Below, in pieces: positions 10,995 through 17,730 of a stretch of 64,000 nt of DNA. The stretch lies in NCBI RefSeq assembly GCF_013315695.1, contig NZ_CP054353.1; one strand, 5' to 3'. Both the position numbers and the translations under genes were made by a program. Origin of the DNA: Escherichia coli (GTDB taxonomy: Bacteria; Pseudomonadota; Gammaproteobacteria; Enterobacterales; Enterobacteriaceae). The notes below the pieces were generated by a model. The model had not been told where the DNA came from and did not search any database. It was given only the letters and a program-made list of their open reading frames with translations. The stretch's first letter is position 1. Every line of letters starts with the position of its first letter.

Positions 10995-11009
10995 TTGCCG
11001 GAGGCGCTT

Positions 11010-11402
11010 ATGGCAAAAGTATTTACACCAGAAGAGCGGGAAGAAGTGAAGGCGCGCATTGTGGAATTCGTGCGCCTGAGCGGACGAGAAACTTTTCGAC
11101 AACTGGCAGATAAAACGGGTGTCAGTAAGACCGCTATTCGTCGTTTATCTGGTGCGCTTGCGGCCAGTGGTGATGTCTGGCTCTCTGGTTGCGGGGTATT
11201 TCCATCAGAGCAGGCGTATCGCGTATGGCGTAAGACACCGGAGAAGGCTGCTGACCCGACACTGATTCGAAAGTTACCTGACGGAGAAATACGTCGTTAC
11301 AACAGACGGCAGAACATAATTTGTCGTGAGTGCCGCCAGAGCGAAGTTATGCAGCGTGTGCTGGCGTTCTATCGGGGAAACTTTCAGGAGGTGATGGAGT
11401 GA
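11010..11402 (+). CDS. Hypothetical phage protein, 130 aa
   Basis: RBS GGAGG 6 nt before ATG; MAKVFTPEEREEVKARIVEFVRLSGRETFRQLADKTGVSKTAIRRL... Confidence 0.55.
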   Translation: MAKVFTPEEREEVKARIVEFVRLSGRETFRQLADKTGVSKTAIRRLSGALAASGDVWLSGCGVFPSEQAYRVWRKTPEKAADPTLIRKLPDGEIRRYNRRQNIICRECRQSEVMQRVLAFYRGNFQEVME

Positions 11403-11695
11403 GGGTCAGAGTTTATATTGCCGGTCCAATGACGGGATATGAAAATTTCAACCGTGAGGCGTTTCACAAGGCGGAAGAGGAACTGAAACGGGAAGGGCAT
11501 ACCGTCTTAAACCCGGCAGTACTTCCGGACGGGCTGACACAGCCGCACTACATGGATATTTGCATGGCAATGATTCGTTGTGTGGATGCGATTTACATGC
11601 TGAATGGCTGGCAGCGGTCAGCGGGCGCTAAGGCAGAGCTGGCACTGGCGGAGAAACTGGGGCATGCAGTGATTTATCAGGAGGTGGCTCAATGA
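11399..11695 (+). CDS. DUF4406-like protein (nucleoside 2-deoxyribosyltransferase-like fold), GTG start
   Basis: RBS AGGAGGT then GTG; VRVRVYIAGPMTGYENFNREAFHKAEEELKREGHTVLNPA... Confidence 0.6.
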   Translation: MRVRVYIAGPMTGYENFNREAFHKAEEELKREGHTVLNPAVLPDGLTQPHYMDICMAMIRCVDAIYMLNGWQRSAGAKAELALAEKLGHAVIYQEVAQ

Positions 11696-12153
11696 GAGAG
11701 GTTAACTATGAGGCGCTTCGTGAGGCAGCACAAAACTATCAGTCGACGCTGGCGTGGTATCAGGCTATTCCGGACAGCCCAAATGCTGAACGGGATTGTG
11801 ATGCGGCTCTTGCTGCGTTTAAGCGTCACATCCGTCATCGGGAAGCGGATATTATCGCTGATTTGCTGGATGGACTGGAAGAAGCAAAATCACAACTCAA
11901 CGAGCAGCGTGAGTATTACGAAGGCGTTATCTCTGATGGGAGCAAGCGTATTGCTGAACTGGAAGCGCGGGAAGTTCAATTACCGACTCGCTACGACCTT
12001 CGATATGGACACCCGATAAATGCAGATGAGCGACATGTCATGATACCTAAAGAAAATGGCAGTTGGCTTTACCTGATTGACTTAGAACACGCATTACGCG
12101 TCGCTGGCATTCGCATCAAAGGAGAGGAGCATGGAAATAAAACCAGAGGATGA
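11692..12153 (+). CDS. Ead/Ea22-like protein, 153 aa
   Basis: RBS AGGAGG; N-terminus MREVNYEALREAAQNYQ... typical of Ead/Ea22-family early proteins. Confidence 0.6.
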   Translation: MREVNYEALREAAQNYQSTLAWYQAIPDSPNAERDCDAALAAFKRHIRHREADIIADLLDGLEEAKSQLNEQREYYEGVISDGSKRIAELEAREVQLPTRYDLRYGHPINADERHVMIPKENGSWLYLIDLEHALRVAGIRIKGEEHGNKTRG

Positions 12154-12487
12154 GTTAAGCAATATCGTTTTATTTCCGGTAAAAGAGGATGACCCTCGTA
12201 ATCAGGTTAATTTTCTTTATGAGCCATCGGAAAGACCATATTGTCATCACGCCTCTGTTCGGGTTGACGAAAAAGAGCGTCAGGTCCGCTGTAAAATCTG
12301 CGGTGCAGTTGTGGAGCCATTTGACTGGATGCTCTCTGTGGCGAAAAGAGAAACCAGACTGGCAGATGATGTAAGGCTCTTGCGTCAGGAGGAGCGGGAA
12401 AGGCGAAAAAATATAGAAAAGCTAATTCAGATTGAGCGTAACGCGAAAGCGCGGATACGCAGGGCGACAAAATCCAGAACTGAATAA
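12131..12487 (+). CDS. Hypothetical protein with CHH...CxxC motif and basic C-terminus
   Basis: RBS GGAGAGGAG before ATG; 118 aa. Confidence 0.5.
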   Translation: MEIKPEDELSNIVLFPVKEDDPRNQVNFLYEPSERPYCHHASVRVDEKERQVRCKICGAVVEPFDWMLSVAKRETRLADDVRLLRQEERERRKNIEKLIQIERNAKARIRRATKSRTE

Positions 12488-12580
12488 TTAAATTTAGCTC
12501 TGTTAAAAATTTAATCCTTAACCGGAGGGATTTCTGCACCCTCAGAACATCAGGAGGCCGCCCGAAAGGGCGGTAGTTAA

Positions 12581-12763
12581 ATGCGAAAGTTTAAAATAAT
12601 TATTGAAACGGGAATAGCCGGTGGAGATTTCGAGGATGAATTCGAAGTGGATGATGATGCGACGCCTGATGAAATACATGACGAAGCAAAAGATATTTTC
12701 TTTAACTACTGCAATTACTCATATCACGAAATAAAAGACGAAGAGGAAGAGCAAAATGGCTGA
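12581..12763 (+). CDS. Small highly acidic protein, 60 aa
   Basis: MRKFKIIIETGIAGGDFEDEFEVDDDATPDEIHDEAKDIFFNYCNYSYHEIKDEEEEQNG; stop overlaps the next start. Confidence 0.5.
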   Translation: MRKFKIIIETGIAGGDFEDEFEVDDDATPDEIHDEAKDIFFNYCNYSYHEIKDEEEEQNG

Positions 12764-12932
12764 TTTTGGTTCAACTAAATACAACGTCAGTTTTGAAGCA
12801 TGGCATGAACTGTTAATGGACTATGCAGAGTTACGTGGTGGCAGTGCTGCTGATGCTGAAGCATGGCGTGATGATTATGAAGCAGGAAAAACTCCGGTCG
12901 AAGCATATTGTGATGAGTGGGGCGATGAATGA
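12756..12932 (+). CDS. Small acidic protein, 58 aa (below the ORF-track cutoff)
   Basis: MADFGSTKYNVSFEAWHELLMDYAELRGGSAADAEAWRDDYEAGKTPVEAYCDEWGDE; start overlaps upstream stop, stop overlaps downstream start. Confidence 0.45.
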   Translation: MADFGSTKYNVSFEAWHELLMDYAELRGGSAADAEAWRDDYEAGKTPVEAYCDEWGDE

Positions 12933-13444
12933 GCGAGATTAATTATCAGGAAGGGCATGAAACGGCAGGGCAGGCAAAACCAGTTGCATGGCGATATCGC
13001 TACGTGAAAAAAGACGTTACAGACTTTCAGGGGAAGCCGTGGGCTGGTGACTGGAAATATGTACCGACAAAAGAGGATTGTAACGACAGGCCGAACTATG
13101 AAATTCAGGCCTTATTCATCGGCCCGCCAGTCCCGGTGACATCAGAAGGACTGGTTAAAGCCGTGCGCTTTTATGAACAGGTAAAGCGTGAGAATCCGCC
13201 AGTCGAAACAGGAGCATGGAAGGATGCTGTTGACTGGGTGCTCAGAGAGGCCTGCTGCGCTGCCATTCTGGGTAAAGCCGACAATCCACCAGCATCCGGC
13301 AATCAGGTTAGCGAATTAACAATGTGGGTTAAACGACTGGTCAGTCAACTGAAAAAAGCTCAGCCGGACTGCAAATTACCGGAGAAGGCGATGGATTACC
13401 TGAAACGAAATGGACTGATAAGCGTGGAGGATGTTTTACGATGA
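12929..13444 (+). CDS. Hypothetical protein, 171 aa
   Basis: MSEINYQEGHETAGQAKPVAWRYRYVKK...; translationally coupled to the upstream small ORF. Confidence 0.55.
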   Translation: MSEINYQEGHETAGQAKPVAWRYRYVKKDVTDFQGKPWAGDWKYVPTKEDCNDRPNYEIQALFIGPPVPVTSEGLVKAVRFYEQVKRENPPVETGAWKDAVDWVLREACCAAILGKADNPPASGNQVSELTMWVKRLVSQLKKAQPDCKLPEKAMDYLKRNGLISVEDVLR

Positions 13445-13564
13445 ATATTTAGACTAAAGAGTTTGTAACGCTATGTAAGTGATTTTTTCTGGTTTAGATA
13501 TTTATATGTCCGGCCAAATTGAGGTGTGTTTAAATGTTATTGCACATTGATTGTAGGGGGAATA

Positions 13565-13744
13565 ATGAAAAACGCATTGCAGTTTTTGTTTGTTGCGTTC
13601 TGGTTGTTCGCATCATGTATGCCCATCATCTTCACAGCAAGGTATATGGAAAAAATTGATGTTTTGATATTAATGTTTGGACATATAAATGCCCTTTTTT
13701 TAGGGGTGTTCATGGCGGTCATGTGCATTGAATACTGGCGGTAA
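13565..13744 (+). CDS. Small hydrophobic membrane protein, 59 aa
   Basis: RBS GGGGG then ATG; MKNALQFLFVAFWLFASCMPIIFTARYMEKIDVLILMFGHINALFLGVFMAVMCIEYWR; AT-rich flanks. Confidence 0.45.
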   Translation: MKNALQFLFVAFWLFASCMPIIFTARYMEKIDVLILMFGHINALFLGVFMAVMCIEYWR

Positions 13745-13889
13745 ATACAGCGAACGCCATTGGTTTAGTTGGATATTTACTGTGCCGGACAAAAACGGTT
13801 TGCGGGGAAATCTTAGTTAAGTAGAATAACTGCGGGTGCTTGAGGCTATCTGTCTCAGGCATGAACACCAAAAGGCAGATAGAGAAAAG

Positions 13890-13953
13890 CCCCAGTTAAC
13901 ATTACGCGTCCTGCAAGACGCTTAACATTAATCTGAGGCCATATCTATGCGAC
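13890..13953 (-). ncRNA. Putative Sok-like antisense RNA of the hok locus (extent approximate)
   Basis: Reverse-strand promoter TTGACC, 18 nt, TAATCT (-35 at 13984-13989, -10 at 13960-13965) pointing across the mok-like start; 3' end not defined. Confidence 0.3.
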
Positions 13954-14006
13954 ACATAGAGATTAGCCTCTTACGGACCGAAAGGTCAAGGAGAAGCAGG
14001 CTATGA
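13947..14006 (+). CDS. mok-like leader ORF (19 codons) translationally coupled to hok
   Basis: ATG CGA CAC ... CTA TGA; its stop overlaps the hok ATG (cTATGAag). Confidence 0.35.
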   Translation: MRHIEISLLRTERSRRSRL

Positions 14007-14158
14007 AGCAGCAAAAGGCGATGTTAATCGCCCTGATCGTCATCTGTTTAACCGTCATAGTGACGGCACTGGTAACGAGGAAAGACCTCTGCGAGGTACG
14101 AATCCGAACCGGCCAGACGGAGGTCGCTGTCTTCACAGCTTACGAACCTGAGGAGTAA
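14003..14158 (+). CDS. hokD: Hok/Gef-family type I toxin, 51 aa (HokD/RelF-like)
   Basis: MKQQKAMLIALIVICLTVIVTALVTRKDLCEVRIRTGQTEVAVFTAYEPEE; RBS AAGGAG. Confidence 0.9.
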   Translation: MKQQKAMLIALIVICLTVIVTALVTRKDLCEVRIRTGQTEVAVFTAYEPEE

Positions 14159-14228
14159 GAGACCCGGCGAGGGAGAAATCCCTCGCCACCTCTGATGTGG
14201 CAGGCATTCTCAACGCACCCGCACTTAA

Positions 14229-14258
14229 CCCGCTTCGGCGGGTTTTTGTTTTTATTTT
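14229..14258 (+). terminator. Intrinsic terminator at the hok mRNA 3' end
   Basis: cccgcttcggcggg hairpin followed by tttttgtttttatttt. Confidence 0.7.
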
Positions 14259-14374
14259 CAACGCATTTGAAGTTCTGGACGGTGCCGGAATAGAATCAAA
14301 AATACTTAAGTAGCGCGCAGGGATAAGAGGGATGGTCCCTTAAAGGGGAGAGCTAATTATCCGGAAGGATTCTG

Positions 14375-14626
14375 ATGATGAACATCGAAGAACTGCGTAA
14401 AATTTTTTGTGAAGATGGCCTCTATGCTGTGTGCGTTGAAAATGGAAATATTGTTAGTCATTACCGCATTGTGTGTTTGCAAAAAAATGGGGCTGCGTTA
14501 ATTAATTTTGTGGATGCCCGAGTGACGGACGGATTTATCTTGCGCGACGGTGAGTTTGTCACTTCATTACAGGTATTGAAAGAGATCGGAATAAAAGCTG
14601 GCTTTTCTGCTTTTTCAGAAGAATAA
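14375..14626 (+). CDS. rem: Rem-like protein, 83 aa
   Basis: MMNIEELRKIFCEDGLYAVCVENGNIVSHYRIVCLQKNGAALINF...; same hok-rem-ydfU order as recalled for Qin. Confidence 0.65.
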   Translation: MMNIEELRKIFCEDGLYAVCVENGNIVSHYRIVCLQKNGAALINFVDARVTDGFILRDGEFVTSLQVLKEIGIKAGFSAFSEE

Positions 14627-17367: not shown

Positions 17368-17443
17368 GGCCCTTTAGCTCAGTGGTGAGAGCGAGCGACT
17401 CATAATCGCCAGGTCGCTGGTTCAAATCCAGCAAGGGCCACCA
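17368..17443 (+). tRNA. ileZ: Prophage tRNA with CAU anticodon, Ile2 (lysidine) type, ileZ-like
   Basis: GGCCCTTTAGCTCAGTGGTGAGAGCGAGCGACTCATAATCGCCAGGTCGCTGGTTCAAATCCAGCAAGGGCCACCA; close to host ileX in sequence. Confidence 0.85.
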
Positions 17444-17543
17444 TCACAAACCGCCATTAGCTTATCAGGAAGAGCAGACGACGCGATAACAGGGTTGTTG
17501 GTGCGGGGGCGGGTCCCCGATGGCGGTCCATTATCGGTATTCA

Positions 17544-17617
17544 GCGTTGTTAGCTCAGCCGGACAGAGCAATTGCCTTCTAAGCAATCGGTCACTGGTTC
17601 GAATCCAGTACAGCGCG
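17544..17617 (+). tRNA. Prophage tRNA-Arg (UCU), argO/argN-like
   Basis: Acceptor GCGTTGT/ACAGCGC, D-stem GCTC/GAGC, anticodon stem ATTGC/GCAAT with loop CTTCTAA, T-arm ACTGGTTCGAATCCAGT; no encoded CCA. Confidence 0.8.
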
Positions 17618-17730
17618 CTATATTCATTCTTCCAGATTCCTTCCGGCAGAGCCTTATACTGAAATATACCTGGCTCAGGATATTGTTGAAAATATTATAT
17701 GTTTGTCAAAAATAAAAGTTCTGTTAAGTA

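Follow-up and report, generated by a model that had tools for sequence, protein, structure and literature searches.

Ocr (the T7 gp0.3 protein) and ArdA are very acidic proteins that are encoded by mobile elements and expressed early. Two open reading frames (ORFs) of a lambdoid prophage of Escherichia coli, ORF1 and ORF2, likewise encode very acidic proteins carried by mobile elements, but these are about half the size of Ocr and ArdA, have compact single-domain models and show no detected similarity to them in sequence or fold. Together with a third gene, ORF3, they form an overlapping trio at 12581-13444 on the plus strand of a 64,000-nucleotide (nt) stretch of E. coli DNA (contig NZ_CP054353.1, assembly GCF_013315695.1; the whole stretch is called the window). 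ORF1 and ORF2 are members of unrelated families, each of which is mobile independently of the other. The three genes are common, already catalogued prophage genes without an assigned function, and no new sequence feature is present.

The proteins T7 Gp2 (acting on RNA polymerase), phi29 p56 (acting on uracil-DNA glycosylase) and lambda Orf55, the last described as a model (PMC8614690), have a topology class like that predicted for ORF1. The shared features are two strands, a helix, a probable third strand, a length of about 55-60 residues and negative charge. Orf55, like ORF1, is the product of an accessory gene, and its region is exo-xis. Orf55 was also considered as a distant relative of the ORF1 family and was rejected by hhalign profile comparison (probability 0.3%).

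Phage NADAR enzymes, which neutralise the DarTG1 defence (PMC11257639), provide another described system. The NADAR proteins of two related phages, Escherichia phage EP_H11 and vB_EcoM_IME392, carry an ORF2-type C-terminus, and the fusion was found only in these two. The EP_H11 protein (locus L004, 1506-2162) is 218 amino acids (aa) long and combines a NADAR domain (Pfam E = 1.2e-26) with the ORF2-type C-terminal domain. In contrast, NADAR is missing both from ORF2 of the window and from the genes nearby.

Organization of the trio

The three genes and their two junctions, with isoelectric points (pI) and net charges of the products, are as follows.

12581-12763, plus strand: ORF1, 60 aa, pI 4.05, net charge -15
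12756-12932, plus strand: ORF2, 58 aa, pI 4.06, net charge -11
12929-13444, plus strand: ORF3, 171 aa, pI 7.6, near-neutral
12756-12763, plus strand: ATGGCTGA junction, with the ORF1 stop TGA (12761-12763) inside the ORF2 start
12929-12932, plus strand: ATGA junction of ORF2 and ORF3

A first-pass annotation of the window had described three ORFs chained by overlapping stop and start codons, the first two being short and strongly acidic. Both junctions are present, and the acidity is borne out by the pI and charge values above and by the composition of the products (20 D/E against 5 K/R in ORF1, 15 D/E against 4 K/R in ORF2). A ranking of the 30 annotated proteins of the prophage region by acidity has ORF1, ORF2 and one further protein in the first three places. 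The trio does not stand as a unit of its own. It is the tail of a chain of seven overlapping genes (10995-13444) with a 93-nt gap 5' of ORF1 as its sole break, and the four genes upstream of the trio overlap in the same manner. The proposal that the 58-aa ORF escapes default gene calling does not hold either, because PGAP annotates it as WP_000753058.1, so that it is not lost in standard pipelines; in phage ArgO145 it is present as gp14. The RefSeq entries for ORF1 and ORF3 are WP_001224662.1 (DUF7167 family protein) and WP_001289994.1, respectively. We infer from its position that the trio belongs to the nin-like, delayed-early part of the rightward operon.

The DUF7167 protein ORF1

ORF1 belongs to the Pfam family DUF7167 (PF23768), which it matches over model positions 1-60 of 60 with an i-Evalue of 1e-14, and it matches PHROG 1997 over its full length (E = 9e-31). 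The pattern of the family is present in ORF1, namely an M-[RK]-K-x-strand, a G, an E-V-x-D-D-A-T-x-E-E-I-E-E helix, F-N, an aromatic strand and an acidic tail. Nothing sets ORF1 apart from other members of DUF7167/PHROG 1997, which elsewhere occur as single genes or as tandem two-domain proteins. An exhaustive search returned 99 relatives at E <= 1e-3, nearly all of 50-70 aa. The median net charge of 41 DUF7167 members is -11, and all of them have a pI of 4.53 or below.

The AlphaFold model of ORF1, made from the family alignment (pLDDT 85), contains a beta-hairpin (residues 2-9 and 16-23) and a helix (29-43), followed by an acidic tail that is less confident. ORF1 is predicted from this model to be a compact acidic domain of about 55 residues with a beta-beta-alpha arrangement and an acidic tail. 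Two metagenomic proteins, P0149 (105 aa) and P0157 (129 aa), carry two DUF7167 domains in tandem, and the domain can therefore work as a repeated module. Of two multi-repeat matches to DUF7167 that were dismissed, the 3033-aa surface protein P0152 was judged to match by chance and P0160 to be a divergent repeat.

The ORF2 protein and its PHROG 519 domain

PHROG 519 is an uncharacterised phage protein family of 261 sequences (10.1101/2022.06.14.493971). ORF2 matches positions 76-137 of the 143 positions of this profile (E = 2e-22), which is the C-terminal domain only. It lacks the N-terminal half of the profile but has the W/W/DY/G/W core common to relatives in Kuttervirus, Koutsourovirus and plasmids. 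No Pfam match was found for ORF2, and a search of AFDB50 with it returned uncharacterised homologues only. The median net charge of 55 ORF2 relatives is -9.

In the alignment of the family, W16 and W37 are invariant, and D40, Y41, G44 and W55 are nearly invariant. The AlphaFold model made with a family alignment (pLDDT 88.8, pTM 0.72) places helices at residues 13-26, 34-42 and 47-55, and ORF2 is predicted to be a Trp-cored acidic three-helix bundle of about 55 residues. The protein contains an internal helix repeat, EAW/EAW/EAY. A 15-nt direct repeat (12794-12808 and 12857-12871, 63 nt apart) encodes EAWHE and EAWRD, and the third motif, EAY, follows, which suggests that the three-helix domain perhaps arose from a repeated helix unit.

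ORF2 and its IncI2 plasmid homologue, WP_000753050.1, differ by 0.68 substitutions per synonymous site (dS) and 0.07 per nonsynonymous site (dN), with an omega of about 0.1. For ORF1 and its Klebsiella phage homologue, dN is 0.21 and dS is saturated. Both small ORFs are real genes under purifying selection, and the conserved cores and the confident models of their products agree with this.

Read out of frame, the first codons of ORF2, ATG GCT GAT, include a TGA. Upstream genes of three unrelated kinds end with ...xAT GGC TGA on the ORF2 start, namely the DUF7167 gene in the prophage, a DUF1187 gene in plasmid pHNSHP45 and a membrane protein gene in plasmid p13190-VIM. ORF2 therefore brings its own portable coupling junction, ATGGCTGA, which is found at 12756-12763 in the window, at 1298-1305 in the pHNSHP45 locus (L008) and at 5001-5008 in locus L009. 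The 8-nt overlap of ORF1 and ORF2 implies that their translation would be coupled.

Independent distribution of the two families

Members of DUF7167 occur without ORF2 in phages of several hosts. In the Klebsiella temperate phage ST512-KPC3phi13.3 the gene lies after the replication genes. Overlaps with exonuclease genes are seen in Klebsiella Guernseyvirinae, at the start of the gene for a 454-aa PD-(D/E)XK-type enzyme, and in phage MDA2 of the Enterococcus Brockvirinae, which also carry DUF7167, at the end of the exonuclease gene. In a metagenomic temperate-phage contig the DUF7167 gene is found downstream of GamL-RecT, three genes after RecT.

Relatives of ORF2 occur without ORF1 in 198 phage records, including Ackermannviridae and Koutsourovirus. 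The relative in Kuttervirus D5lw adjoins the major capsid gene, and that in Koutsourovirus is flanked by the genes for DNA polymerase and a 5'-3' exonuclease. Further relatives without ORF1 are carried by 561 plasmids, 516 of which are conjugative. The homologue on the IncI2 mcr-1 plasmid pHNSHP45 shows 86% identity with ORF2 and belongs to a one-strand run of genes (L008, 591-2454) encoding a CaiF/GrlA-family regulator, a DUF1187 protein, the ORF2 homologue, an SPFH protein and NfeD. The run reads toward the genes for type IV secretion, and about 18 kb separate it from mobC/relaxase. The strictly lytic phages that carry members of the two families include Herelleviridae, Guernseyvirinae, Ackermannviridae and Autographiviridae.

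The Shiga toxin (Stx) phage ArgO145 contains the gene of a 118-aa protein together with ORF1 and ORF2 among Ead/Ea22-like genes near one genome end rather than in the nin region. Since this cassette is nin-like in the window and near a genome end in ArgO145, an accessory rather than a core role is indicated. In the cryptic prophage PhiR42_1 (L011, 2600-3530), ORF1, ORF2 and ORF3 are broken by stops and frameshifts, and insertion sequence transposase genes adjoin them. Such decay is what is expected of phage-function genes that a cryptic prophage does not need, and it is counted toward the accessory role.

Proposed function and alternative explanations

The favoured reading is that the trio is ordinary accessory cargo of a lambdoid delayed-early operon and not a dedicated three-gene system. 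ORF1 and ORF2 would each act alone, by stoichiometric binding to a protein of the host or of a competing element. The bound protein would have a basic or nucleic-acid-binding surface, and the outcome would be host takeover or counter-defence, of use to lytic and temperate phages as well as to plasmids. We hold this reading of accessory cargo with independent protein-binding factors tentatively, at slightly less than an even chance, and its binding part is the one that we infer. The conserved acidity of both families is counted in its favour. A takeover or counter-defence role is compatible with the small size, the conserved acidity, the early-type operons and the spread across unrelated phages and plasmids. 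The fusion of a NADAR domain with an ORF2-type domain may, weakly, add a further link to counter-defence.

Several observations weigh against this reading. ORF2 is not confined to early settings, since its Kuttervirus relative adjoins the major capsid gene and its IncI2 relatives belong to an operon of transfer genes. The NADAR fusion, seen in two closely related phages only, could represent read-through of neighbouring genes. PDB sequence and profile searches and AFDB50 searches gave no fold or sequence link of ORF1 or ORF2 to a characterised inhibitor. A literature search found nothing on DUF7167 and a single mention of PHROG 519, in a machine-learning anti-CRISPR prediction. Small acidic proteins are, moreover, common in phages for many reasons.

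Searches of functional collections returned no assignment for the trio. NCBIfam gave nothing for the three genes, and PHROGs gave families of unknown function only. ORF1, ORF2 and ORF3 are unmatched in PADLOC at E <= 0.1, the models of which describe defence and not anti-defence.

A more specific proposal, which we consider rather unlikely, is that the ORF2 family could inhibit, across mobile elements, a conserved protein of enterobacterial defence or DNA surveillance. A second, independent inhibitor might be DUF7167, with action in both Gram-positive and Gram-negative hosts.

ORF1 and ORF2 could instead be accessory factors of replication or recombination, for example modulators of a phage exonuclease or inhibitors of RecBCD/AddAB. 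Lambda Gam and T7 gp5.9 are precedents, each encoded beside the exonuclease of its own phage. The trio of the window lies in the replication/nin region, and nuclease or recombination genes recur near the relatives: DUF7167 overlaps the start or the end of exonuclease genes in Klebsiella Guernseyvirinae and Enterococcus phage MDA2, respectively, and follows RecT by three genes in the temperate-phage contig, and the Koutsourovirus ORF2 stands between polymerase and exonuclease genes. However, nuclease neighbours are often expected by chance in dense early gene arrays, and the neighbouring exonucleases come from different families. In the window and in the Klebsiella temperate phage, no gene for recombination is found at a distance of three genes or less, and the contig with RecT already encodes GamL. 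A role of this kind is unlikely.

The first-pass annotation had pointed to DNA-mimic anti-restriction, in which ORF1 and/or ORF2 would imitate the DNA backbone by carboxylate arrays and, in the manner of Ocr and ArdA, block restriction enzymes of type I or of other types. The very low pI and strong negative net charge conserved in both families, the early-operon placement in lambdoid phages and the abundance of ORF2 on conjugative plasmids agree with this explanation. Nevertheless, phmmer searches and hmmsearch with the family profiles against all PDB chain sequences (E <= 10), a set that presumably includes solved mimics such as Ocr and ArdA, detected no mimic and gave compositional matches only (designed repeat proteins and calmodulin). 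The known mimics Ocr and ArdA are longer, elongated dimers, whereas ORF1 and ORF2 are modelled as compact domains some 55 residues long. Conservation falls mainly on aromatic residues of the core and on a helix-capping motif, not on a periodic acidic array. The IncI2 copy is apparently outside the leading region next to oriT, and the capsid-side and transfer-operon contexts of ORF2 fit poorly with anti-restriction. Charge is what speaks for a DNA mimic, with no specific support besides, and we regard this explanation as quite improbable.

Modulation of the lysis-lysogeny decision is similarly improbable. ORF1 and ORF2 would in this case resemble the exo-xis genes orf60a, orf61, orf63, orf73 and ea22; the exo-xis genes are small, early and shift the balance of lysogeny and lysis (PMC8614690, PMC7093339). 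The placement of the ArgO145 cassette among Ead/Ea22-like genes is in line with such a role. Both families are found in strictly lytic phages, which argues against a lysogeny-specific role, and ORF2 is also carried by plasmids, where no lysogeny decision arises. No homology to the five conserved exo-xis proteins was found, and the comparison of DUF7167 with lambda Orf55 gave the hhalign value of 0.3% noted above.

The least credible explanation, that ORF1 and ORF2 form a two-component unit (a heterodimer or a toxin-antitoxin-like pair), draws on the intactness of the pair in 92% of the E. coli genomes with any match, on the coupled translation implied by the 8-nt overlap and on an 'antitoxin' label given to ORF2 relatives in two database entries. 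Outside the lambdoids of E. coli, however, either family is found in the absence of the other, so that the two are not an obligate pair, and with a DNA identity of 89% or more among the E. coli copies of the pair, their linkage may reflect recent common descent. Acidity of both partners is atypical of toxin-antitoxin pairs, ATGGCTGA couples ORF2 equally well to unrelated upstream genes, and the labels come with no stated evidence.

ORF3 and the Ead/Ea22-like proteins

ORF3 matches PHROG 660 (E = 4e-75) and gives partial matches to PHROGs 26213, 924 and 250. It has no Pfam match, and hence none to Ead_Ea22 (PF13935). In a tblastn search, no phage record covered at least 80% of ORF3, and segments 1-115, 38-119, 62-171 and 108-171 matched different phages; ORF3 is a mosaic. 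Its modules also occur in various lambdoid, N15 and P22-type proteins.

ORF3 resembles the Ead/Ea22-like proteins, such as lambda Ea22 and P22 Ead, in a 31-residue match to PHROG 250 and in its start, MSEINYQ, which compares with MSEIDYQ in a protein of ArgO145. That protein, a 211-aa Ead/Ea22-like protein starting MSEIDYQALREAAEKAT, occupies the position of ORF3 in ArgO145, and the 4-nt ATGA overlap is kept. The earlier suggestion that ORF3 shares its first residues with the upstream Ead-like protein of the window stands as a 7-residue motif (MSEINYQ against MREVNYE), but beyond it BLASTP gave no significant similarity of the two proteins (E = 23). ORF3 thus differs from the Ead/Ea22-like proteins in the missing PF13935 match and in this E value against the window's own Ead-like protein. 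As a mosaic protein of the Ead/Ea22 neighbourhood, it is replaceable.

The leader of ORF1

The region directly 5' of ORF1 contains the following features.

12488-12580, plus strand: 93-nt gap with what is left of the 3' end of a lost upstream gene; translation in the ORF1 frame ends ...SEHQEAARKGGS and a stop
12552-12557, plus strand: AGGAGG Shine-Dalgarno (SD) sequence, 23 nt 5' of the ORF1 ATG
12558-12573, plus strand: GC hairpin CCGCCC-GAAA-GGGCGG, between the SD sequence and the ORF1 ATG

The RNA of 12540-12600 folds with -18.3 kcal/mol (z = -3.3), and the hairpin is present in both the minimum free energy and the centroid structures. Folding of the hairpin reduces the distance from the SD sequence to the ATG from 23 nt to 7 nt. 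Split ribosome-binding sites have been described for phage T4 genes, and the leader of ORF1 is possibly a site of this kind. The block of SD sequence, hairpin and 7-nt spacer (12552-12580) is identical in ArgO145 (L012, 3357-3384), where the sequence farther upstream differs. The same block is also the 3' remnant of the lost upstream gene. Some E. coli relatives have an upstream ORF with the end ...AEHQEAVRKGGS that continues into ORF1, for example in the fused protein P0143.

A terminator function of the hairpin was rejected, as the scan returned no terminator there and the hairpin lacks a T-run after it. A scan of 11500-14600 found no promoter-like site upstream of ORF1 on the plus strand. 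A 12-nt inverted repeat (12570-12581 and 12701-12712) was also dismissed, since such a repeat is about what chance would give in a region of this size.

Prophage setting and neighbouring genes

According to the RefSeq annotation of an identical locus, the region is a Rac/Qin-type lambdoid prophage in which the trio is placed between ydaS/T/U-type replication genes and hokD, rem, DUF968, rusA and Q. The order of genes 5' of the trio is Cro/CI, YdaT, DnaT-like replication protein, P, DUF1627, DUF977, DUF4406, Ead/Ea22-like and a 118-aa protein, and the order 3' of it is hokD, rem, DUF968, rusA and the Q antiterminator. Features that flank the trio are given below.

12131-12487, plus strand: gene of the 118-aa protein, PHROG 1621 (E = 1.8e-56)
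13834-14005: sok, Rfam match (E = 2e-24)
14003-14158: HokD toxin ORF
14167-14248: weak isrK-like match
14227-14244: terminator-like hairpin 3' of HokD

In the 118-aa protein a zinc-ribbon-like motif, CHH...CxxC, precedes a basic coiled-coil tail, and a near-identical protein is encoded upstream of the ORF1-ORF2 pair in ArgO145. The label of methyltransferase given to a homologue in one phage record is unjustified; a single weak match to PADLOC MTase_II (E = 0.033) was found. The sok and HokD features form a hok/sok type I toxin-antitoxin locus directly downstream of ORF3 (13834-14158). Phage-borne tRNA genes are present 3' of the Q gene (17368-17618), with anticodon CAT (Ile according to PGAP) and Arg-TCT. 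Genes for tRNA-Asn and tRNA-Ser(CGA) lie near the start of the window (680-755 and 1747-1836), which is a possible prophage integration neighbourhood.

Abundance and significance

Many E. coli chromosomes carry the 1.2-kb stretch around the trio with 100% identity, and 2748 of 5426 complete genomes contain a match to it. Of these 5426 genomes, 1749 have an intact ORF1-ORF2 pair, equal to 92% of the 1908 genomes with any match, so that about a third of complete E. coli genomes carry it. ORF2 is in addition carried by the IncI2 plasmids that spread mcr-1 colistin resistance. The value of the trio is that of a reasoned candidate for experimental screening and not of a discovery. If the takeover or counter-defence role is true, a very widespread family would join the catalogue of anti-defence factors, with possible relevance to plasmid and Stx phage host range.

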